Source: Patescibacteria group bacterium (GTDB lineage Bacteria > Patescibacteriota > Microgenomatia > UBA1400 > PJMF01). Taken from it: a stretch of DNA of 50,745 nucleotides. The translations under genes and the position numbers were made by a program. The notes below the pieces were generated by a model. It saw only the letters and a program-made list of their open reading frames with translations. It did no database searches and was not told the origin of the DNA. The stretch covers positions 1 to 50,745 of the forward strand of contig JBMORQ010000026.1 of assembly GCA_049322575.1 (NCBI GenBank), in the 5' to 3' direction. Of the stretch, positions 2,725 through 38,159 are shown piece by piece (the stretch's first letter is position 1; each line of letters starts with the position of its first letter).

Positions 2725-3084
2725 ATGCCAAACGACAAAACAAAAACTAAAAACAGTCAAAAAAATTCTAACAATTCTTGGCAGGTTGTAGTGCTCTTTC
2801 TAGTTCTGATTGGGCTTATTTTTGCAGTCGAAAGGTACTTCTTTTATCTCACCGAATTGCGAAATAAGTATGCAATAAAGGAGGTCCTCTTATACTCAGC
2901 AAGACTCGATCTAGAAAAATTTGGCCAAAAGCAACTTGCCTATTCCGAATGCGTCGTCCATACCAAGTTTACCGATATGCTCCTACCTTGGTTACTCCAG
3001 AATCAAATAGATGAGTTAGACAGCAAAATCAAGATCTGTAATGAGAAAGTTACTCAATTACAATCCTCGCATCCAGAGCCTTAA
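2725..3084 (+). CDS. Hypothetical single-TM protein
   Basis: 119-aa ORF with basic N-terminus and one TM; 3' end overlaps the convergent acetate-CoA ligase gene by 35 nt. Confidence 0.55.
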   Translation: MPNDKTKTKNSQKNSNNSWQVVVLFLVLIGLIFAVERYFFYLTELRNKYAIKEVLLYSARLDLEKFGQKQLAYSECVVHTKFTDMLLPWLLQNQIDELDSKIKICNEKVTQLQSSHPEP

Positions 3085-5161
3085 CCCCCTCCCCCTCAGG
3101 TAAAACCAAAAGTGGATTGATATCGAGCTCAACGATCTCCGGGAAATCACTTACTAGTTGCGCTAAACGACCAATACTCTCGATCATCAAGGCTCGGTCG
3201 GCTGGTTTTTGGCCACGCACACCGGCAAAAATTGCTGACGAACGTAGGCCATCAATCATTCTCTCGGCGTCTGTTTTAGTAAGAGGCACAAAAGCTAAGC
3301 TAACATCCTTGAGAACCTCGACATAAATTCCTCCCAAACCGAACATCACCATGGTTCCCAATCCTGGGGCGCGATTAACACCCAGAATTGTTTCGGTTCC
3401 GTAGGCTGGAGCCATCTCGACCAACAAGACACCGTCCAGACGAGCCTCGGGTTTATTCTTGGCAACAGTTTTCATCATTTGCTTGAAGCTGTCTTCGACT
3501 GTTTCACAGGTAACATTCAGCATTACCCCACCCACGTCACTCTTGTGCAAGATATCCTGCGAGACGATTTTCATGGCAAACTTCATCTCTTTTTTGCCTG
3601 CCATCTTGGTAGCGGCTTTTTTAGCGTCGACAGCAGTAGCAGCTTGAGCCGACTGCAACATTGGGAAACCGTAAGCAGCTAATATTTCAATTGCCTCAGA
3701 CTCTGGGAAGGAGGTCTTGCCTTTTGCTTTTGCTGCCGCAAAGATTTGGCCAACCTTTTCTTTGTCAACATCAGCATAGCGCAAAGGACGAGCTATTGGC
3801 TTGTCGGCGCGATCCACAAATTTGCCAAAGGTTGCCATGGCCTTAGCAGCTGGCTCGGGGAAGGTTGAAGTGACCACTCCGGCTTGTTTCATAGCGTCAA
3901 CTCCAGGTTGGACAGTTTCTTGCCCCATGAAACTAACAATCATCGGCTTATTGGTGTTGGCACGTGTCGCTACCACTGCCTTGGCTGTTTTGACAATTTC
4001 TGTCATTGACTGAGGTGTTAATAACAAAATGATGGCGTCGGTATTTGGGTCTTCGGCAACTAATTCCAAAGCCTGTTTGTAACGGTCACCTACCGCGTCA
4101 CCCAAAATATCCACCGGGTTGTGGGTGCTGGCAGCGGCTGGCAGAAATTCTCGGAGAGCTTTGACAGTTTTAGGAGCCAATTCGGCCATCTCCAAGCCAC
4201 TCTCCACCACTGCATCAGTAGTTAAGACACCAGGACCACCAGCGTTGGTGATGATGCTAACGCGACGAACTTTTTGCAAACTGTTTTTTGAAAAGATCTG
4301 TGCGTAATCAAACAACTGACTAATACTTTCGGCACGAATGATACCTGCCTGAGCAAACAATGATTCGTAGGCAATGTCACCACCACTCAACGAACCTGTG
4401 TGAGAGGCAATAGCGCCAGCACCAGCCTCGGTCTTACCGGACTTGAGCATAATGATCGGCTTGGGATTTTTACCTCGAGTAATTTCTTGTACAGTTTTAA
4501 TGAGTTCTGGGGCATTTTCCAATTGCTCAACGTACATGGCAATTACTTTCGTTTGTGGATCTTGGGCAAAGTATTTAATGAGTTTTAACTCGTTAATGTC
4601 TGCCTTGTTGCCAATGCTCATAAATTTGGAAAAACCAATACCGAGTTCTTTAGCGTAGTCCAAAACGGCCGTACAAAGTGCGCCACTCTGAGAAACAAAA
4701 GCTACATCGCCTGGCTCTGGCATCAGGGCGGCAAAAGAGGCGTTCATTTTGATTTCAGGATTGATAATTCCCAGACAATTTGGACCAACCAACGACACAC
4801 CTAGTTCGCGGCATTTTGCCGATAAATTGCGTTCCAGCTCAATGTTGCCAATCTCTTTGCAACCAGCCGAGATGACGATAGCTGCCTTGGCACCTTTAGC
4901 AGCAGCTTTTTCTATTTCGGCTGTCACGAAAGACGCTGGTACAGCGATCACAGCTAAATCAATGTCTCCAGGGATCTGTTCAACGGAGGCATAAACCTTT
5001 TTACCATAAAGTTTGTCTGCTTTAGGATTTACCGGATAAATCTCACCCTCGTAGCCCTGAGTTACAAGATTTTTGACCACGTCATTACCCACTGTCTTCA
5101 GGTTCCTGGATGCGCCAATCATGGCTATGGCTTTGGGATAAAAAAGAGCTTGATAGGACAT
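3050..5161 (-). CDS. acdAB: Acetate--CoA ligase (ADP-forming), fused alpha-beta type
   Basis: CoA-binding N-domain (IGAS, YPVNP, VGPNCLG), SQSGA, phospho-His motif ASHTGSL, TNAGGPG, ATP-grasp C-domain HKSDVGGV and ELDINPL; no GNAT domain. Confidence 0.9.
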   Translation of the reverse strand: MSYQALFYPKAIAMIGASRNLKTVGNDVVKNLVTQGYEGEIYPVNPKADKLYGKKVYASVEQIPGDIDLAVIAVPASFVTAEIEKAAAKGAKAAIVISAGCKEIGNIELERNLSAKCRELGVSLVGPNCLGIINPEIKMNASFAALMPEPGDVAFVSQSGALCTAVLDYAKELGIGFSKFMSIGNKADINELKLIKYFAQDPQTKVIAMYVEQLENAPELIKTVQEITRGKNPKPIIMLKSGKTEAGAGAIASHTGSLSGGDIAYESLFAQAGIIRAESISQLFDYAQIFSKNSLQKVRRVSIITNAGGPGVLTTDAVVESGLEMAELAPKTVKALREFLPAAASTHNPVDILGDAVGDRYKQALELVAEDPNTDAIILLLTPQSMTEIVKTAKAVVATRANTNKPMIVSFMGQETVQPGVDAMKQAGVVTSTFPEPAAKAMATFGKFVDRADKPIARPLRYADVDKEKVGQIFAAAKAKGKTSFPESEAIEILAAYGFPMLQSAQAATAVDAKKAATKMAGKKEMKFAMKIVSQDILHKSDVGGVMLNVTCETVEDSFKQMMKTVAKNKPEARLDGVLLVEMAPAYGTETILGVNRAPGLGTMVMFGLGGIYVEVLKDVSLAFVPLTKTDAERMIDGLRSSAIFAGVRGQKPADRALMIESIGRLAQLVSDFPEIVELDINPLLVLPEGEGVKALDARIVIE

Positions 5162-6031: not shown

Positions 6032-6763
6032 TCATCTCACCACCACGTTTTTCAAATGCCTATCAAAAATCTCTTTAGCTGCCTCAGCCTGCTCTTTTGT
6101 GGCTGGCGGTACGCCTTCCAATTGATATGGCAAGCCCATGGCTTTATATTTGTGAACTCCAAGAGTGTGATAAGGCAAAATCTCAACTTTTTCTAGGTGT
6201 TTAAAATTTGAAAAGCGCTTGGCCCATGCCTCCAGGTGTTCCGGTTGATCACTCCAGCCAGGCACAAGCACATAGCGCAACCAAAGCCGCTTACCAATTT
6301 TTTCGGCATAATCAGCATTTTTAAGCGGATTTTCGTTGCTCTGGCCAGTTATTTTTTTATGCCACTCTGGATCAATGTGTTTGACATCCAACAAAATCAC
6401 GTCCGCCAACTCATAAATGCGATTAATTTTTTCGTCAAAAAATGCCCCGCAAGTGTCTAAAGCAATACTAAAACCAGCTTTTTTAACCGCGGTAAATAGT
6501 TCAATCAAACCATCAGCCTGGACAGTTGGCTCACCACCTGAGACAGTGAGGCCACCCCCATCTCCAAAATAGGTTTTTTGTTTTTGCAACAAGGCTACAA
6601 TTTGTTCTGAAGTCATGTCTCTTGCCTCTGGACTTTGGCGCGGCCGCGCATCTGGATTTTGACAATACAGACAACGAAAAATGCAGCCCTGCAAAAACAG
6701 TACCAGCCTGATTCCTGGGCCGTCATGAGTGCCAAATGTCTCGATCGAGTGAATATGGAGCAT
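6032..6763 (-). CDS. pflA: Pyruvate formate-lyase activating enzyme (radical SAM)
   Basis: HSIETFGTHDGPGIR, CIFRCLYC CxxxCxxC, SGGEP, ILPYH. Confidence 0.95.
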   Translation of the reverse strand: MLHIHSIETFGTHDGPGIRLVLFLQGCIFRCLYCQNPDARPRQSPEARDMTSEQIVALLQKQKTYFGDGGGLTVSGGEPTVQADGLIELFTAVKKAGFSIALDTCGAFFDEKINRIYELADVILLDVKHIDPEWHKKITGQSNENPLKNADYAEKIGKRLWLRYVLVPGWSDQPEHLEAWAKRFSNFKHLEKVEILPYHTLGVHKYKAMGLPYQLEGVPPATKEQAEAAKEIFDRHLKNVVVR

Positions 6764-8141: not shown

Positions 8142-10400
8142 TTACATGGATTCATGAAACGTTCGCGCAATCACCTCTTTTTGTTTGTCTGGTGTTAGAC
8201 GTACAAAGTTGACAGCATAACCAGAGACACGAATTGTCAGCTGGGGATACTTTTCGGGATGCTCCATAGCTTCAATGAGAGTCTCACGGTTCAAAACGTT
8301 GACATTTAAATGATGGGCATTCTTTCCAAAATATCCATCAAGCGTGCCAACTAAATTACCAACCTGCTCTTCTCGACCACCACCAAGAGACTTCGGCACG
8401 ATCGAGAAAGTGTTAGAAACACCGTCACGAGCGTTCATGTAGTCAATTTTTGAGACCGAGTTCAAGGAAGCGATAGCTCCTGATCTGTCTCGGCCGTGCA
8501 TAGGGTTGGCTCCTGGGGCGAAAGCCTCACCTAATTTTCGTCCATCGGGAGTAGACCCTGTCTTTTTACCATAAACAACGTTGGACGTAATTGTCAAAAC
8601 TGACAATGTTGGCACTGCATTACGATAAATGTGGTGCTCACCCAATTCCTGATTGAAGTCACGCACCAGATCACGAGCTATCATATCAACCCGATCATCG
8701 TCGTTGCCGTAGCATGGGTAATCACCCTCGACTTCGAAATCGACTGTCAAACCCTGCTCATTACGAACAGGAGTGACTTTGGCAAACTTAATAGCCGATA
8801 ATGAATCCGCCACCACGCTCAAACCAGCGATACCAAAAGCCATGTTACGCTTGACCTCAGTGTCCATAAAAGCCATCTGGGCTTTCTCGTAGTAGTATTT
8901 GTCGTGCATGTAATGAATCACGTTCATAATGTTGGTATAGCTACCTGCCACATGATTCATGGTGATATTAAAACGACGCATAACTTGATCGTAGTCAAGT
9001 GGACCCTCAGGCATTGGCTCGATTCCTGGAACCAACTCCACTCCAGAAATTTCGTCACGACCCTCGTTTAGAGCAAGAAGCAAGGTTTTGGCCAAGTTAC
9101 AACGAGCACCAAAAAACTGCATTTCTTTACCTGTCTCCATCATGGAAACACAACAAGCGATACAGTAATCATCGGTATCACCAGCGCTGCACATTAATTG
9201 ATCGTTTTCGTATTGAAGAGATGACGTATCAATCGAAACCTTAGCGCAGAATTTTTTAAAACCTTCTGGCAATTTATCGGACCAAAGAATGGTTAGATTC
9301 GGCTCAGGAGCAGAGCCTAGGTTGTACAGGGTCTGCAAGAAACGAAAACTAGTTTTAGTAATCTTATGTTGGCCGTTTTTCCACAAACCACCAATCGATT
9401 CCGTTACCCAAGTAGGGTCACCGGCAAAAAGTTGGTTGTACTCGTCCATGCGCAAGTGACGAATTAAGCGCAGTTTCATGACAAAATGGTCAACCATTTC
9501 TTGCGCTTCGGCCTCAGTAATCCAACCATTAGCCAAGTCTCGCTCGATGTAGATATCCAAGAAACTACTGACATTACCTAAACTCATAGCTGCGCCATCT
9601 TGTTCTTTAACAGCTGCCAAAAAAGCAAAATACGTCCACTGAATCGCCTCCTGAGCAGTGGTGGCAGGCTTGGTCACATCAAAACCATACTCTTGCGCCA
9701 TCTGGGCAATCGCTTTGAGTGCACGGATCTGCTCGCTAACCTCTTCGCGCAACCGGATTACCTCATCGGTCATGACTCCCTCGAGGGCTTTTTTATCGGC
9801 TTCTTTGGCCTCAATCAAGCGATCTGTACCGTATAAAGCAAGACGACGGTAGTCGCCGATGATCCGACCACGAGCATAGTTGTCTGGCAAACCAGTAATC
9901 AAGCCAGAGGATCGAATCTTGCGCATTTCTTCAGTGTAAACGTCAAATACGCCATCATTATGGGTTTTTCGATACTCACTAAAAATTTTAATCACCTCTG
10001 GATCAAGCTCCTTGCCGTTTTCCTCGCAAGCCTGCTTAACTACGCGCCAGCCACCAAAAGGTTTGATAGCTCTTTTTAAAGGTTCATCTGTTTGGACGCC
10101 AACAATGGTTTCGAGTTTCTGATCAATATATCCTGGCTTGTGTGAAGTTACGGTTGGAATTGTTTTGGTGTCAATGTCAAGAACGCCACCATTTTTGCGT
10201 TCTTTTTCCAAGATTTTTTTGGTTTTTTCCCAAAGTTCTTTTGTTCTGGCAGTTGACCCCTCAAGAAAAGAGTCATCACCATCGTATGAAGTCATGTTCG
10301 TGAAAATGAAATCGCGGACGTTGATCTCATCCTGCCAGATATTTTGTTTAAAAGCTTGACGCTCAGAATTTTTTTTTGCAGAAGTAGTTTTTTGTGACAC
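8142..10400 (-). CDS. pflB: Pyruvate formate-lyase (formate C-acetyltransferase)
   Basis: Adjacent catalytic Cys in IACCVS, glycyl-radical motif [19 protein letters not shown]; GTG start. Confidence 0.97.
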
Positions 10401-14134: not shown

Positions 14135-14163
14135 TGCAGGGCTTGGTGGAGGATGTTGGAACC
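14135..14163. repeat. att-like motif copy A, related to tRNA-Trp 3' end
   Basis: TGCAGGGCT identical to 16408-16416; 21/27 identical to copy B. Confidence 0.6.
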
Positions 14164-15278
14164 TATTTCTTTTCCATCAACACTTTTCTTAGACCAACAT
14201 GTACATAGGTATCAGCCAGTCCTCTTTTATGACTTTTCTTTAATAAGCCAATCTGTTCAAAACGCAAAATATTATTTCTAGCTGTTTGATAAATAGCCTT
14301 AAGGGGAACTTTTTTCTTTTTGAGATAAGCTTCAAATTCTGTAATAGTAAAGAAAAACTCCTGAAGTGAAAAGTCCAATAATAACAACGGGGTAGAACTG
14401 TTTCTAAAGCTTGAGGTTACAACCTCTTCGTCTTTTCTTTTGATATTTCGTAGTTCATTTATCAACCTTACGACTTCTCGAGATTGTTCTTCAACTCCCT
14501 TTAAGAAAAAAAGCGTCCATTTTTTATAATCTCCGACATCTGTAACATTTCTAAGATGGTAAACGTATTCATCTCTATTTTTTTCAAAAAATTGACTAAT
14601 ATTCAATATTGGAGCAGATAAATGTTTCTTATTCAATAGAAGATAAGCAAGGATCAGCAACCGTCCAGTTCTTCCATTTCCATCTTCGAATGGGTGTATG
14701 GCTTCAAACTGAAAATGACGTATAGCAATCCAAGGCAAACTCAAATCGGGTAAATTAGAAACCTTTTCAAATAATTGAGTTACTAAATAACTAACCTCAA
14801 AAGGCTCAGGAGGAAAGAAGTCTCCAAGCTTACTGTTACGAATCTTAACTTGAGTGGTTCTAAAGATTCCTGGATCACCGTGGGTTGCTGGATCATTTTT
14901 CGTTAGAAGTTTATGCAAATGACGAATAAGACCAGCGTCAATTTTTCCATATCCAGCAACAATTCTTTCCAACTCATTAATTGTATATTTATAATTCAAG
15001 GCACTAAACAATTTTAATTCCTTTTTCTTCTCAAGACTCAAGAAGTCTTCCATGTATAGGTCTTCCAAGTTGCCGGTTGTCCCCTCAATTTTGGCACTAT
15101 TTAATGCCTCAATATTTTTTAAAGTGTCAATAATAAACGATAAATCAAAAATTGAAGTTGAAAGCTGATTTACTTGACCTAAATAATGGGACGCTTGTTC
15201 CCATGCTTCAAGAACTTGAATTGAGGATAAACTATCTGTTGGGATATCAAAAATATCTTGTTTTTGGGCAAATTTCAT
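14163..15278 (-). CDS. Fic family protein (class II-like, N-terminal inhibitory motif)
   Basis: Canonical HPFEDGNGRTGR and upstream SAKIEG (S/T)xxxE(G/N). Confidence 0.93.
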   Translation of the reverse strand: MKFAQKQDIFDIPTDSLSSIQVLEAWEQASHYLGQVNQLSTSIFDLSFIIDTLKNIEALNSAKIEGTTGNLEDLYMEDFLSLEKKKELKLFSALNYKYTINELERIVAGYGKIDAGLIRHLHKLLTKNDPATHGDPGIFRTTQVKIRNSKLGDFFPPEPFEVSYLVTQLFEKVSNLPDLSLPWIAIRHFQFEAIHPFEDGNGRTGRLLILAYLLLNKKHLSAPILNISQFFEKNRDEYVYHLRNVTDVGDYKKWTLFFLKGVEEQSREVVRLINELRNIKRKDEEVVTSSFRNSSTPLLLLDFSLQEFFFTITEFEAYLKKKKVPLKAIYQTARNNILRFEQIGLLKKSHKRGLADTYVHVGLRKVLMEKK

Positions 15279-25315: not shown

Positions 25316-25948
25316 ATGGCAAAAACAGCTCAAGTTAACCAAGACCAACCACTAACTCCCCCAGAGGTGCAGGAAGTGCGTGTAGATTCACCCAATATTG
25401 TCACAATCTCCGATGAAGAGAACAAAAAAGCCCGATGGTACGTTGTTCACACCTACTCTGGTCACGAAAATAAAGTTGCCGAAACACTCAAACAAAGAAC
25501 TGAAACTCTACACCTAACAGGTCAAATCCTAAAAGTTTTGATTCCAACCCAAGAAAAAATTCAAATCCGCCGCGGTCAACGCAAAACTGTCAACGAGAAA
25601 ATCTTCCCAGGCTACATGTTGGTTCAGATGGAGATGTCAGATGACGCCTGGCTGGCTGTCCGCACCACTCAAGGTGTGACTGGTTTTGTTGGCATGAGCA
25701 GCAAGCCAACTCCCTTACCAAGACACGAGGTCGAAGCTATCACTAAATACATGTCTCAAGGCACTCCTCAATTTAAGGCCGACTTTGTCGACGGTGAGGC
25801 CGTTCGTATCGTCGACGGACCCTTCAACGATTTCTTGGGTACAGTTAACTCCATCGACGAAGGCCGTGGTAAAGTTGAGGTTTTGGTGAGCATTTTCGGA
25901 CGCGAGACTCCAGTCGAGTTAGATTTCTTACAAGTTCAGAAAGTTTAA
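25316..25948 (+). CDS. nusG: Transcription termination/antitermination factor NusG
   Basis: WYVVHTYSGHE, FPGY, GVTGFVG, KOW domain, IFGRETPVELDF. Confidence 0.98.
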   Translation: MAKTAQVNQDQPLTPPEVQEVRVDSPNIVTISDEENKKARWYVVHTYSGHENKVAETLKQRTETLHLTGQILKVLIPTQEKIQIRRGQRKTVNEKIFPGYMLVQMEMSDDAWLAVRTTQGVTGFVGMSSKPTPLPRHEVEAITKYMSQGTPQFKADFVDGEAVRIVDGPFNDFLGTVNSIDEGRGKVEVLVSIFGRETPVELDFLQVQKV

Positions 25949-26093
25949 AGACTAATACCTAAATATTGGCTTGCTTATGGCACCTAGCCCTTGCAGTTGA
26001 GCCGAGCAACAAGCCAGAAAGTATGCTAAAATAGCGCTTCCGAGAAACTGATTGCTTCTGTCAGGATCTCAACAAACGCATCAGAAAGAAAAA

Positions 26094-26516
26094 ATGGCAA
26101 AAAAAGTTAAACAAATCTTAAAATTGAATTTACCAGCCGGATCAGCTACCCCAGCTCCTCCAGTCGGTCCTATTTTAGGTCAAGCTGGTATTAACATGAT
26201 GGATTTTTTGAAGCAATATAATGACGCCACTAAAGATCAACGTGGTCAAGTTATCCCCGCTTTAATTACTGTCTACGAAGATCGTTCTTTTACCTACGTT
26301 CTTAAGCTACCACCAGTTTCAGACATGATTAAGCAAACCCTGAAACTCAAACAAGGCAGCGCCAAGACAAAATCGGATGTGGTGGGCAAGTTGACCCAAG
26401 ACCAAGTTCGAGAAATCGCAGAGAAGAAATTACCAGACCTCAACACCACTAACCTGGATGCGGCGATTAAGTCCGTTACCGGCACCGCCAAAAGCATGGG
26501 AGTGGAAGTTATATAG
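26094..26516 (+). CDS. rplK: 50S ribosomal protein L11
   Basis: ATPAPPVGPILGQ, YEDRSF, GTAKSMG. Confidence 0.98.
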   Translation: MAKKVKQILKLNLPAGSATPAPPVGPILGQAGINMMDFLKQYNDATKDQRGQVIPALITVYEDRSFTYVLKLPPVSDMIKQTLKLKQGSAKTKSDVVGKLTQDQVREIAEKKLPDLNTTNLDAAIKSVTGTAKSMGVEVI

Positions 26517-26569
26517 TAACGAAATTGCCCCCTGGGCAAGCCGATCGGGATGGTCGGCAAGAGGAAAAT

Positions 26570-27298
26570 ATGGCAAAAAGTAGAAATGTCGACATGTCGG
26601 CAAAAGTTGATGAAATTAAAATTGTAGCTGCCCCCGAAGATAGCGCTGAAACACAGCCAACGGCCGAAGCTGAAGTCGCTGAAGGTAGTAAAGTCAACAA
26701 GAAAGCCAAACAAGGTCGTAGCGCCAGATATCAAGCAGTTCGCGCTCAAGTTGACAGAACCCGCAAATACGATTTAGCAACCGCTGTTGAGATGGTCAAA
26801 AAGCTCTCATACAGCAAGTTTAAAGGTTCTGTTGAGGCTGCCCTCGTCGTAAAAGAAGTTGGCTTTTCAACTAGCGTCAGCTTCCCCCACTCAACAGGTA
26901 AATCGATTAAAGTTGCCATCGTTGATGATCAAATCTTGCAAGATATTGAAGACGGCAAAATCGACTTTGATGTTTTGGTTTCCAAACCAGAGTACATGCC
27001 AAAATTGGCTAAATTTGCTAAAGTTCTAGGTCCAAAAGGCTTAATGCCAAACCCAAAGAACGGTACTTTGACCACTAATCCAGAGTTAAAGGCTAAAGAG
27101 TTGCAATCTGGCAAGATGACAATCAAAACTGAGAAAAAAGCTCCATTAATTAACCTATCAGTCGGTAAAATTTCCATGGACGACAAAGAATTAATTGAAA
27201 ACCTAGAGGCTTTACTCAAAGCGGTTAAAGGCAAACTTGTTCGTCTGTCTATTTCTGCAACCATGGGTCCTGGAATTAAAGTTGCTTTCGAGCAGTAA
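26570..27298 (+). CDS. rplA: 50S ribosomal protein L1
   Basis: LGPKGLMPNPKNGT, ATMGPGIK; GAGG SD before ATG 26570. Confidence 0.96.
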   Translation: MAKSRNVDMSAKVDEIKIVAAPEDSAETQPTAEAEVAEGSKVNKKAKQGRSARYQAVRAQVDRTRKYDLATAVEMVKKLSYSKFKGSVEAALVVKEVGFSTSVSFPHSTGKSIKVAIVDDQILQDIEDGKIDFDVLVSKPEYMPKLAKFAKVLGPKGLMPNPKNGTLTTNPELKAKELQSGKMTIKTEKKAPLINLSVGKISMDDKELIENLEALLKAVKGKLVRLSISATMGPGIKVAFEQ

Positions 27299-34958: not shown

Positions 34959-35078
34959 CTTCAAATAAAGCAAATCATTGCTCGCTCGAAATTCTTCTTC
35001 CCATTCTGTCTTCAAGAAAGTAATTAAACAGTCTTTGTCTGCGGTTTTTGCCTTAGACATTTGTACAACAGGAGAACC

Positions 35079-35597
35079 ATGCCAAGTCAACAAAATCAGG
35101 CACAAGTTAAAGTCTTACAAGACAAAGTAGCAGCTGCTAAATCAGCCGTGATCGTCGATTATTCAGGCACAACTGTTGCCGATCAGGTCGAACTGCGCAA
35201 CATGTTGCGCGAAGCTGGTGGCGAAATGTATGTCGCAAAAAATACACTTGTCAATGTCGCTTTTGGCAAGAAAGAATTAGCCGAATCGCTCGAAGGAATG
35301 AATGCCGTTATTTTTTCCAACGAAGATGCCGTTTCTGCCTTAAAAAAGCTCTTTGAATTTCACAAGGACAAAGAAAAACTAGTCATTAAACAGGGCGTGA
35401 TGGAAGATAAAGTTCTCTCGCCTGGTGAGGTTGAGGCATTAAGCAAACTCCCAAGCAAGAACGAATTAGTCGTGATGTTAATTCAACGCATCCAAGGCCC
35501 AGCTTATGGTTTGGTCAATGTGCTCAAGGCCAGCCAACGAGACTTGGTTTATGCACTCAAAGCTATTGTCGATAAAGGCGCCCAACCAGCTGCCTAA
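35079..35597 (+). CDS. rplJ: 50S ribosomal protein L10
   Basis: [28 protein letters not shown]; AGGAG SD. Confidence 0.96.
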
Positions 35598-35669
35598 TTA
35601 ATTTGTATTAAAAAGTAGTAAATAACGCCCAACACTAAAACCAAACAAGGCGTAATATAAAGGAGAAAG

Positions 35670-36089
35670 ATGTCAGAAGACACACAAAAAGACAACAAAG
35701 AGTTGTCCAAAGCCGTACAAACTATCGTCGACGCCGTCAAGAAATTAAGCTTGATGGAAGTTTCCGAGTTGGTTAAAGCCCTCGAAGACGAATTTGGCGT
35801 TAGTGCTGCCGCTCCAGTCATGATGGGTGGCATGATGCCAGCCGCCGGTGCAGCCGCTGCTCCAGCTGAAGAGCAAACCGAGTTTGACGTCATCTTGAAA
35901 GATGCCGGTGCTAACAAAATCGGTGCTATTAAAGCTGTCCGCACCTTAAAACCAGAATTAGGTTTGGGTGAAGCCAAAACTTTCGTTGAGTCAGCTCCCA
36001 AGACTGTCTTGGAAGGTGCCAAGAAAGAAGACGCCGAAGCTGCCAAGAAAGCTTTGGAAGAAGCTGGTTGTGTTGTTGAGCTCAAATAA
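35670..36089 (+). CDS. rplL: 50S ribosomal protein L7/L12
   Basis: [28 protein letters not shown]. Confidence 0.98.
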
Positions 36090-36116: not shown

Positions 36117-36143
36117 AAAACCCCGCCACAAGGCGGGGTTTTT
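36117..36143. terminator. Intrinsic terminator after rplL (likely bidirectional)
   Basis: AAAA-CCCCGCC-ACAA-GGCGGGG-TTTTT. Confidence 0.88.
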
Positions 36144-36201: not shown

Positions 36202-36945
36202 CTAGTTGGCGTTGACAGGAATAGCTTTTGACCTATCTAGAGTAGGCATTTGAGGGTTTGTAAACATTTCCAATATTCCTAAACTACGCAAACATTCATA
36301 GGCGTTTTCACCAATTGCATTAAACCTCTCCATAGTTGCATCAAGGCGTCGCTTGATTTCGTGCTTTTCTTGCTCAAAACGATCTCTCGCACCGCTCACC
36401 GATCTATAAACCACCGTTTGGCCAGCAGTCTCTGGCTCAAGGCTGCCAAGTTCAGATATGGCAGTATTAATCCTCTTCTCTTCCTTCTCCAATCGACTTA
36501 TCTTTTCCTGCAGAACAATTTTCTGGATGATTTCTAGGGTTTTAACAATTACAAGCAACTGCTGCTTACATTCTTGTGAAACTGTTTGAAGTACGTCCAA
36601 AGAGCTCATGACATTTAATGTCAGAGTTTTAAAAACACCAACTGCTTCTGGAATTTGAGGTTCACCAAATCGATTCCAAAGCTCAGCTGCTGCATTTTTT
36701 TCCAAAGCTGAATCAATTAGCAATCCAAGATTTTCTTGTAAAACCTGCAAATTAGCCTGAAGATACTGCCCCATCTCAGCTGGCAACTGACTCATTGTTT
36801 CTGTTATATCAGCCAAATTGAGACCAATTCTGGAAAGAAAAAAATGCTCTAATGCACTTAGGACTGGCCTTTCGCCATTAAACATTGTAGCGAGAGTTTC
36901 TCTCGACCGTCCTATTCCTGAGGTTCTAGCGCTGGTTTGTGGCAT
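36202..36945 (-). CDS. Hypothetical helical/coiled-coil protein downstream of cobalamin riboswitch
   Basis: ATG 36945 preceded by AAGGAG; heptad-like KISRLEKEEKRINTAISEL; no TM or signal peptide apparent. Confidence 0.65.
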   Translation of the reverse strand: MPQTSARTSGIGRSRETLATMFNGERPVLSALEHFFLSRIGLNLADITETMSQLPAEMGQYLQANLQVLQENLGLLIDSALEKNAAAELWNRFGEPQIPEAVGVFKTLTLNVMSSLDVLQTVSQECKQQLLVIVKTLEIIQKIVLQEKISRLEKEEKRINTAISELGSLEPETAGQTVVYRSVSGARDRFEQEKHEIKRRLDATMERFNAIGENAYECLRSLGILEMFTNPQMPTLDRSKAIPVNAN

Positions 36946-36969
36946 AAAAAAAGCTCCTTTCAAAGGAGC
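36946..36969 (-). terminator. Terminator / SD-sequestering hairpin of riboswitch expression platform
   Basis: GCTCCTT-TGA-AAGGAGC-T7 directly followed by ATG. Confidence 0.75.
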
Positions 36970-37041
36970 ATCTGGCAAAGGCTTTGCCGTTTAAAAATGT
37001 CGGCAAAAGCTCAAAGTCTCGATGCTCGTCGATTAATAATT

Positions 37042-37196
37042 GCTGAAGATCGGACTTTTTGCTTTCTAACACCTGGTTTTTGGCCAAAAGCAAATCACCG
37101 TTGCGGCACAGTCACGGATTTTCACCGTGTTCCACAGCTTAGTTTGTTACCTCCTGCATAGCCTGCGCTTGGTTTTGCGGGTGCGGTTACAAACTA
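37042..37196 (-). ncRNA. Cobalamin riboswitch
   Basis: Minus strand GCTG-TGGAA-CACGG-TGAAAAT-CCGTG-ACTGT-GCCGCA-ACGGT...AAGTCCGATCTT-CAGC matches J3/4, P4 T-loop, P5 and B12-box pattern. Confidence 0.82.
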
Positions 37197-37609: not shown

Positions 37610-37891
37610 ATGACAGACCAATTTGTCGCCAATCAGAACTATGATCTAGAGGGTGAGGACAAAAGAACCGGCCGCGTCGCCGATGCAACTAAATTAGACA
37701 TCAACAATTTACCCGATCTTCTTACAGTGCGTGAAGTCGCTGATTTGTTGCGCGTCTCACCTCTAACCATCAAGCGCTGGGGCAAACGCGGCAAATTGCC
37801 AGCAATTCGCATCAACTCTAGGGGCGATCGCCGTTATAAGAAGGAGGCTGTGCTTTGGCTGCTCGGTATAAATCCCGAGGGCGACGAGTAG
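37610..37891 (+). CDS. Excisionase-family / BldC-like winged HTH DNA-binding protein
   Basis: LLTVREVADLLRVSPLTIKRWGKRGKLPAIRINSRGDRRY. Confidence 0.88.
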   Translation: MTDQFVANQNYDLEGEDKRTGRVADATKLDINNLPDLLTVREVADLLRVSPLTIKRWGKRGKLPAIRINSRGDRRYKKEAVLWLLGINPEGDE

Positions 37892-38159
37892 GCTTTTCCT
37901 GCTCATCACCTATAGTTTGCAGCAAAAATACAACAGGTTTGTTTTCATCAGTTTTTTTCCTGGTAAAACCAAGAAAACATTGCGCTACGATCGGACACTC
38001 TTTGGACATTTCACAAATGATTTGAGTAACACCCTGAAAAGTCTCCAAGCGTATTACCTCCTCGTATCTATGAGGGCACTCTAGAGGAATGAAAGGATCG
38101 CCATCGATCTCAGGCAATGGTCCATATTTTGGCAGTAGTTCTGCGGGACTAATTAACAT
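37818..38159 (-). CDS. Hypothetical protein
   Basis: 113-aa ORF; 3' end overlaps convergent HTH gene by 74 nt. Confidence 0.35.
   Translation of the reverse strand: MLISPAELLPKYGPLPEIDGDPFIPLECPHRYEEVIRLETFQGVTQIICEMSKECPIVAQCFLGFTRKKTDENKPVVFLLQTIGDEQEKPTRRPRDLYRAAKAQPPSYNGDRP

Follow-up and report, generated by a model that had tools for sequence, protein, structure and literature searches.

B12 riboswitches repress genes that are needed at low B12. The best-scoring Rfam family for the switch considered here is that of the adenosylcobalamin (AdoCbl) riboswitch of Bacillus subtilis yvrC (RF01482; Chan & Mondragon 2020, PMC7367189). New B12 biology has been discovered repeatedly through the genes that follow B12 riboswitches, as with the accessory binders of Bacteroides described in PMC8941943. 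We analysed a 50,745-nucleotide stretch of DNA (the window; positions 1 to 50,745 of contig JBMORQ010000026.1, assembly GCA_049322575.1) from a Patescibacteria group bacterium. Its relative CP011212 (G010), from the same bacterial family, is assigned in the Figure 4 legend of PMC7143001 to the GTDB order UBA1400, candidate family PJMF01, within Microgenomates. The minus strand of the window contains a cobalamin riboswitch (aptamer and P13, 37149-37015) upstream of the gene P0001, which encodes a 247-aa protein. The RNA is almost certainly a genuine B12 riboswitch. The reading that we favour, a Cbl-II-type switch acting on a one-gene unit whose product is an accessory factor of B12 starvation, is as a whole evenly poised between right and wrong.

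The scan of the window at the Rfam gathering thresholds produced seven matches, all of them tRNAs, and no cobalamin riboswitch. The reason is the short closing (outer) stem, due to which the alignment is local and remains below the threshold. In the permissive scan RF01482 (AdoCbl) matched positions 37042-37138 of the minus strand at E 7.8e-7. The score is 44.1 bits, where 50 are required, and the alignment, whose posterior probabilities are close to 1, spans model positions 23-98 of 149. The score of RF00174 was 24.5 bits against 31.5. A first-pass annotation, made from the sequence of the window, had placed a B12 aptamer core on this strand and proposed a check with the Rfam cobalamin models; both models do match, however both remain under their cut-offs, and the gathering cut-off of the clan CL00101 (RF00174, RF01482, RF01689) is not reached. 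Orthologous switches from two relatives are matched over the full length and exceed the RF01482 cut-off (56.1 bits in G025, 55.6 bits in G010). Among 61 related genomes, including that of the window (G000; 1,112,664 bp, 42 contigs, 94.8% complete), RF01482 is found at E <=0.01 in 32, nearly always as a single copy, and exceeds the cut-off in 2 of 61. The Rfam thresholds thus miss most switches of this lineage, as only 2 of the 32 matching genomes pass.

The aptamer core is confirmed by comparison of the relatives. Thirty loci from the RF01482 scan were anchored on the invariant GCCGCAAC and GAGCA motifs, and 27 of them were aligned; G012 and G043, where the pattern found no GAGCA, and G048, with an ambiguous 257-nt stretch, were left out. 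The counted structure consists of P3, P4, P5, P6 and P13, altogether 21 pairs derived from the sequences. Over the 27 sequences 90.8% of the cells are paired, whereas the value falls to 29.5-43.7% when the 3' partners are slid by 1-3 columns, and none of 500 shuffles (mean 70.2%) reaches the observed value. Changes on both sides occur in 15 of the 21 pairs. By helix, pairing is 73.5% for P3, where the rows G025, G006 and G022 are one column off register in the 5' arm and lower the value, 98.5% for P4, 100% for P5 and 98.8% for P6, with 11 of these 17 pairs changing on both sides; in P13 all four pairs do so and 94.2% of the cells are paired. A chance origin is therefore excluded. With the clade covariance model R1, built from the 27-row alignment, the window copy (37015-37149, minus strand) scores 101.6 bits, and both this model and the permissive Rfam scans find it to be the only switch in G000. 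A second set of loci (30, of which 23 belong to genomes that did not contribute to R1) shows the pairs at 95.6% against at most 48.9% in the slid controls, in an alignment that was fitted to R1 and hence is biased towards the structure. The RNA is a divergent member of a known riboswitch class, with a cobalamin as its predicted ligand.

The conserved core is present in the window copy with the B12 box and the GGUGAAAAUCC and GCCGCAAC motifs. All its elements are on the minus strand: P3 (37138-37135/37045-37042), P4 (37129-37125/37117-37113), P5 (37110-37108/37104-37102) with the loop L5 GCC (37107-37105), and P6 (37100-37098/37053-37051) with a short hairpin extension (37097-37054). The B12-box-like sequence AAGUCCGAUCUUCAGC occupies 37057-37042. 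The aptamer is followed by a hairpin with UCGA/UCGA arms (37032-37019) and the invariant loop CGAGCA (37028-37023), which corresponds to P13 and L13 of the Rfam AdoCbl model. Indeed, in G010 the Rfam model places its own P13/L13 on this element, and the loop resembles the RF01482 L13 consensus. Directly upstream of the aptamer, minimum free energy (MFE) folds contain a 57-nt hairpin AGUUUGUAACC...GGUAACAAACU (37196-37140, minus strand). It is outside the conserved model and was seen in none of the relatives' leaders, and thus is lineage-specific and particular to G000. A candidate 6-bp P1 (37201-37196 with 37037-37032) was rejected: its arms are complementary, yet it was predicted neither in free nor in constrained folds.

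In the window and in the relatives the closing stem has 4-7 bp, the P2 module is not conserved, and P6 carries one small hairpin. We take RF01689 and env8HyCbl to be names tied to the Cbl-IIb subclass; Rfam clan competition kept RF01482 as the best match for the window switch and did not display the RF01689 score. According to the Figure 1 legend of PMC7367189, which defines Cbl-IIb within the class-II switches, the window switch seems to be of the compact class-II type with a Cbl-IIb-like architecture: P2 with its loop-stem-loop is absent, the closing-stem junction (J1/3) is short, P6 has a small hairpin extension, and the L5/L13 design is the same. This likeness is one of architecture, and the preferred ligand may be AdoCbl or methyl- or hydroxocobalamin. 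With the yvrC switch it shares the core, namely the GGUGAAAAUCC hairpin, the GCCGCAAC-type L5 region and the AAGUC...UCUU B12 box, as well as P13 with a CGAG(G)CA-type loop followed by a terminator hairpin and poly-U. The differences are a closing stem of 4 bp instead of the 12-bp outer stem of the RF01482 model, no conserved P2 module, a match limited to the model positions given above, and an L13 that is one G shorter than the yvrC type. The downstream genes differ too: that of the window encodes no transporter, whereas yvrC we take to be btuF-like.

Between P13 and the start codon there is an intrinsic terminator, GCUCCUU-UGA-AAGGAGC (36969-36963/36959-36953, minus strand) followed by seven U (36952-36946). 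Its 3' arm contains the Shine-Dalgarno box AAGGAG (36959-36954), 8 nt before the ATG at 36945, so that the first-pass description of a hairpin that both resembles a terminator and hides the Shine-Dalgarno box is correct. An antiterminator (36966-37027, minus strand), seen in the MFE fold and by complementarity, is formed by pairing of GAGCAUC (37027-37021; L13 and the 3' side of P13) with GAUGCUC (36972-36966), and the GCUC of the latter is also part of the terminator's 5' arm. Thus P13, the antiterminator and the terminator are three mutually exclusive structures, by sequence and by comparison. P13 and the terminator are separated by a variable insert of about 50 nt, which lies inside the antiterminator and contains a hairpin with CGGC (37010-37001/36989-36981, minus strand). 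Alternative stems at 36974-37010, with CGGC pairing to a GCCG loop, had been suggested earlier. The hairpin is real; however, conservation does not support the CGGC/GCCG mechanism, since the insert is lineage-specific and relatives have unrelated sequence there. The conserved regulatory partner in the platform is the P13 hairpin with its loop CGAGCA, not the CGGC insert.

The MFE fold of the isolated platform contains the antiterminator (-23.3 kcal/mol), whereas the conformer with P13, the insert hairpin and the terminator has -21.9 kcal/mol; before the 3' arm of the terminator is transcribed, the antiterminator is the MFE structure, also with -21.9 kcal/mol. Two near-isoenergetic states are what a switch tipped by a ligand requires. 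By an exact-match script the antiterminator/terminator design was found in 13 of the 30 leaders of the first set (10 of the 13 with GAGCA...) and in 18 of the 30 leaders of the second, where 24 have a terminator-like hairpin with a U-run. The terminator is absent in six leaders of one genus, and these presumably act on translation only. Among the loci of the P0001 family only the window copy has a terminator whose 3' arm doubles as the Shine-Dalgarno box; the same arrangement is found in several leaders of the longer proteins described below.

A P13/P14 rearrangement of the same kind is drawn for the yvrC switch in PMC7367189, and the known cobalamin switches of this design are described there as OFF switches. 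With AdoCbl or another cobalamin bound, the contact between L5 and L13 would keep P13 closed and GAGCAUC unavailable; the terminator would form, transcription would halt at the U7 run, and in any read-through mRNA the ribosome-binding site would be paired. When B12 is scarce, the antiterminator would form and P0001 would be expressed. We infer that an OFF switch combining termination with occlusion of the Shine-Dalgarno box is most likely, and therefore P0001 would be made only when B12 is scarce. The opposite assignment is that the ligand stabilises not the short hairpin but the long GAGCAUC:GAUGCUC helix, so that B12 prevents the terminator and induces the gene. In G010 cmscan indeed put the model P13 on the long helix formed by GAGCAU...AUGCUC, the loop being the stretch that contains CGAGG, and this helix and the terminator are mutually exclusive. 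However, it is the short hairpin NNGA-CGAGCA-UCNN that covaries in all four pairs and has an L13-like loop, whereas the interior of the long helix is not conserved; in G025, G002 and G005 the short hairpin is directly followed by the start codon, without any long helix. Together with the OFF behaviour of the described switches of this design, this makes an ON switch very improbable.

The switch and the gene are strictly linked. In all 30 examined loci of the P0001 family (hereafter, the short family) the switch is upstream on the same strand, with 86.6-109.7 bits by R1, so that the homologs do keep the riboswitch. Within a set of 37 genomes of the bacterial family (G000 included), the switch stands beside the protein in all 28 genomes that hold a switch-linked class, in 26 of them by Rfam and in two, G028 and G029, by R1 only (81.8 and 81.9 bits, no Rfam match). 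Conversely, all 26 genomes with an Rfam-level switch have a switch-linked protein adjoining it. The switch as the relic of a lost canonical gene, the outcome that the first-pass annotation had named as fatal to its proposal, is not what this linkage shows. More broadly, one may suppose a decaying switch, or an open reading frame (ORF) that is no real gene, given that the window copy scores under both Rfam cut-offs and that a word-indexed protein search with P0001 returned only the query itself among 588 candidates. The covariation and the linkage speak against this, as do 79 family representatives of uniform length, a high-confidence fold derived from co-evolving positions, and the intact Shine-Dalgarno box, ATG and terminator; such an explanation is close to refuted.

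Side observations on these loci concern gene integrity. Three matches of the switch-linked profiles contain one in-frame stop each, namely G022:C1:332495-334222 (TAG), G027:C1:420816-422348 (TGA) and G141:C19:3647-4366 (TAG); they may be pseudogenes, wrong starts or sequencing errors. In G013 the switch is at the end of one of the contigs C10 and C1 and a truncated short-family gene is at the end of the other, and the two contigs probably join there.

P0001 (36202-36945, minus strand) consists of 247 codons and a TAG stop, and its start is backed by the family alignment. It converges on rplL (35670-36089, plus strand), which is preceded by rplJ (35061-35597, plus strand). A GC-rich palindrome with T-runs between P0001 and rplL (36120-36134), found in the terminator scan, is probably a bidirectional terminator, which would make P0001 a one-gene unit. 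The absence of any recognisable B12 motif from the 247-aa ORF, reported from sequence inspection, holds in database searches: there are no Pfam or NCBIfam families at E <=0.01 and no matches in PHROGs or PADLOC. No match was found with models of the known B12 regulon either (BtuF/BtuCD, ECF-type and DUF6580 membrane parts, DUF4430, cob/cbi, MetE, NrdAB, NrdDG). Thus, by family searches, the gene behind the switch is no known transporter, synthesis gene or B12-independent isozyme. The locus search found no relative with P0001 alone and three loci with its homolog from G010. The short family is narrow: a profile built from seven switch-linked homologs retrieved, from 1.84 billion proteins, 79 cluster representatives at E <=1e-3, 40 of them at 1e-10 and 6 at 1e-30, nearly all of 225-260 aa. 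Members were present in 42 of the 140 genomes of the bacterial family, which belong to 16 of its 57 genera. The conserved hairpin motif of the short family is E82..AA..L89...FG.P96....A101..V104...L108.

The AlphaFold2 model of P0001 has a predicted local distance difference test score (pLDDT) of 79.1 with seven sequences in the alignment and 91.5 with 64 sequences (predicted template-modelling score 0.82). Its helices 31-51, 56-93, 99-173 and 177-228 make a very long bundle. The protein had been described as a coiled coil; the helical part of this stands, however a long helical bundle is a better description. According to the model, P0001 is predicted to be a soluble elongated bundle and not a membrane transporter. 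The PDB sequence-profile search with the short-family alignment (A2) had a best E of 0.072 (syntaxin), and ESM Atlas searched with P0001 gave a best feature score of 0.80 and template-modelling (TM) scores of at most 0.49, inside the stated noise of the tool. For both models the best Foldseek row is soluble AhlC (E 5.1e-3 and 6.6e-3 against a significance bar of 1e-3; TM 0.39-0.57), the soluble component of the Aeromonas tripartite alpha-pore-forming toxin (PDB 6r1j, 6h2e, 6h2d; ClyA superfamily). The same list contains eight further entries of this superfamily: YaxB, PaxB, ClyA, SmhB, MakA, AhlB, XaxB and NheA.

Such similarities raise the possibility that intracellular B12, sensed by the switch, stands for the state of the host or the environment. 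P0001 would then be a host-directed or surface factor, possibly a membrane-active bundle of the ClyA/AhlC kind, deployed at B12 exhaustion to extract resources from a partner cell. It resembles AhlC in its size and long-helix bundle, and VIA superposes 195-196 residues of AhlC (Z 11.8 and 10.7, root-mean-square deviation 5.2-5.7). The very fast divergence of the family and its replacement by non-homologous proteins would suit a host-directed factor, as would the secretion-like genes that follow the longer proteins in 9 of 15 loci (see below). However, all fold matches are under the significance bars: the VIA scores are below the helical-bundle noise of the tool, about 13, and de novo designed bundles, Snf7 and chemoreceptor domains tie with AhlC. 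Identity to AhlC is 8-16%. P0001 has no hydrophobic head segment, whose entry into the membrane we take to be a feature of AhlC/ClyA toxins. No A/B or other ClyA-type partner components were found within 1.5 kb, where no ORF cluster except the gene itself is common to different genera, and the secretion-like cluster of G000 is on another contig, without a switch. We therefore consider B12 as a host or environment cue unlikely.

As to B12 itself, G000 depends on it. A single frame with a ribonucleotide reductase (RNR) barrel was found in G000, behind nrdR; it carries RNR-II_ins_dom and is the B12-dependent NrdJ. No NrdD was matched in G000. A PduO-type adenosyltransferase is present (163 bits), whereas a B12-binding domain (15.7 bits) and BtuF (17 bits) are not over their cut-offs. 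The suggestion to look for NrdJ or other B12 enzymes was thus borne out. Judging from the gene content, the organism would be unable to reduce ribonucleotides without B12. The NrdJ frame of G000 (contig C24:50466-53552) is 1028 aa long, and open frames at the NrdJ match in most relatives have about 730-800 aa; a LAGLIDADG-type domain (E 1.6e-4, 22.3 bits, cut-off 22.5) suggests an intein or a homing-endonuclease insert.

In the 37 genomes NrdJ is found in 33, the Rfam-level switch in 26, all NrdJ-positive, and one of three switch-linked protein classes in 28. The four NrdJ-negative genomes (G007, G011, G018, G021) have neither the switch nor PduO, nor any of the three classes, nor a DUF4430-DUF6580 pair. 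The latter occurs in 20 of 61 relatives and is probably a B12 capture and uptake pair. The switch-linked protein occurs alone in 17 of the 33 NrdJ-positive genomes and together with the DUF4430-DUF6580 pair in 11; another 4 have the pair alone, and one, G031 (81% complete), has neither. That protein and pair are partly complementary across these genomes is the chief argument in favour of a role in obtaining or handling B12. We tentatively suggest such a role under starvation; P0001 would then be a starvation-induced accessory factor for obtaining or handling cobalamin.

The dependence on NrdJ permits another explanation as well, in which P0001 helps the cell to survive without B12-dependent deoxynucleotides, by deoxynucleoside or DNA salvage, replication arrest or dormancy, analogously to the switches of B12-independent isozymes. 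NrdJ is the only RNR found, B12 switches are known to control B12-independent substitutes, and in G039 a switch-linked gene of 364 aa is directly upstream of nrdR-nrdJ. Moreover, in relatives the switch heads operons with genes of the type IV secretion system (T4SS)-like kind, and such genes take up DNA in some bacteria. However, nothing in a helical bundle of 247 aa with two invariant residues resembles an enzyme, P0001 is not similar to kinases, nucleases, transporters or RNR subunits, and its neighbours are not conserved, so that compensation for stalled NrdJ seems quite improbable.

In sister genera the proteins encoded behind the orthologous switch are 508-734 aa long and have conserved cysteine motifs (alignments A3 and A4). 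Where a genome of the bacterial family has a switch-linked protein, it is of one class, and the long classes occur only in NrdJ-positive genomes; in G014 there is a single B/C hybrid frame. The long proteins occupy the same slot as P0001, directly behind the switch, whereas they are more than twice as long, have the cysteine motifs and often are the first gene of a T4SS-like operon. A3 and A4 have only the cysteine block in common (hhalign probability 76%). The search of the PDB with A3 gave no match, and one member of each long family had no match in PHROGs or PADLOC. Searches of G000 with hidden Markov models found no long-family member; together with hhalign they rule out P0001 as a fragment of a long-family protein.

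In 9 of the 15 long-family loci a giant protein of 1056-1681 aa is encoded immediately downstream, at a distance of -4 to 116 nt. A C-terminal M23 peptidase domain was found by Pfam in 6 of 7 giant proteins scanned, and a PrgI-family protein follows in 3 of 3 scanned; the cluster is type-IV-secretion-like, and in these nine loci it may be under B12 control. In the relatives (L037-L047) as well as in G000, where it is on contig C15:4144-14917 and has no switch, the T4SS-like cluster comprises the giant protein with its C-terminal M23 peptidase, a fusion of PrgI with a CarboxypepD_reg domain, a protein of some 330 aa and other genes.

One could go further and regard the slot behind the switch as a module for exploitation under B12 starvation. 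An ultra-small host-dependent bacterium would use its intracellular AdoCbl as a signal, and interchangeable, fast-evolving soluble factors would act on a partner cell to obtain cobamides or sources of deoxynucleotides. The factor would be an AhlC-like bundle here and, in the sister genera, a cysteine-rich protein leading a T4SS-like operon. We hold this to be distinctly unlikely. If true, it would mean a riboswitch that governs host interaction rather than metabolism or transport.

Several observations weigh against a B12-starvation accessory factor behind a Cbl-II-type switch. On the RNA side, the window switch scores under the cut-offs of RF01482 and RF00174, and L5 (GCC) and L13 (CGAGCA) are both invariant, with just 2-3 Watson-Crick pairs drawable between them. 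On the protein side, the 64 members of the alignment are 11-27% identical to P0001, the only invariant residues besides M1 are F93 and G94, and there is no conserved histidine or cysteine able to bind cobalt (about 0.4 cysteines per protein). There is no Sec-like N-terminus and no membrane segment, the best 19-aa Kyte-Doolittle mean being 1.27 and the family median of such maxima 1.1. Between the short family and the long families hhalign gives probabilities of 0.03% and 0.09%, that is, no detectable homology, and three protein classes in one slot resemble a changing cargo more than a housekeeping protein for cofactor handling.

The remaining points of this kind concern the uptake pair and the phyletic counts. 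In G049, from the same order, the switch (RF01482, 49.0 bits) directly precedes DUF4430-DUF6580-nrdJ, and DUF4430 is described as the C-terminal domain of transcobalamin-type binders in PMC4350170; for both reasons the pair is the most plausible route of B12 uptake in this lineage. G000 has the same kind of switch and the same B12-dependent lifestyle as G049, whereas its switch controls P0001 instead of the transcobalamin-like binder DUF4430 and the membrane protein DUF6580. Its own DUF4430-DUF6580 pair (contig C5, L059:1426-2500, minus strand) has no switch. The phyletic counts come from related genomes and may reflect few events, and co-loss with NrdJ is partly trivial, because a B12 switch is useless in a cell without B12. 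From the linkage and the presence of NrdJ and PduO, the proposal of a new B12-responsive function is supported as a lead.

Bacteria of the Candidate Phyla Radiation (CPR) such as G000 make no B12, yet need it for every deoxynucleotide (NrdJ and PduO). What is new here is the regulon: a soluble, fast-evolving helical family found only behind the switch in every locus examined. This strictly linked family, with a confidently predicted structure and one hairpin motif, is a small and soluble target, and standard hosts should be able to express it. It could reveal an undescribed step of B12 handling in the CPR, or the use of B12 as a cue for host-directed functions. In the literature searched, which excluded subscription journals and supplements, we found nothing on cobalamin riboswitches in Patescibacteria, Microgenomates or CPR; the query on Saccharibacteria or CPR and cobalamin riboswitches turned up only thiamine pyrophosphate switches, in what could be seen of a report on a Variovorax genome. 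No publications on DUF6580 were found.

The surroundings of the locus in the window are as follows. P0001 converges on rplL at the place usually taken by rpoB. The ribosomal blocks nusG-rplK-rplA (25316-27298) and rplJ-rplL (35061-36089) are parted by about 8 kb, which hold thrS, a major facilitator superfamily transporter, three ORFs without family and a DUF2207 membrane protein. Upstream of the switch leader a 93-aa MerR/HTH_17 ORF (37610-37891, plus strand) overlaps a family-less ORF of 113 aa (37818-38159, minus strand), and likely only one of the two is real. Further away, 3050-5161 encodes a protein similar to ADP-forming acetyl-CoA synthetase, and 14163-15278 a Fic-domain protein. On the minus strand a gene for pyruvate formate-lyase (8142-10400, 690 bits) is followed after about 1.4 kb by a radical-SAM ORF (6032-6763) that may encode the activating enzyme. 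The GC skew is negative in every 2-kb bin of the window (1-50745), from -0.011 to -0.242, a persistent bias in strand composition of the kind to which the title of PMC7143001 refers and which Figure 4 of that paper plots for UBA1400 genomes.

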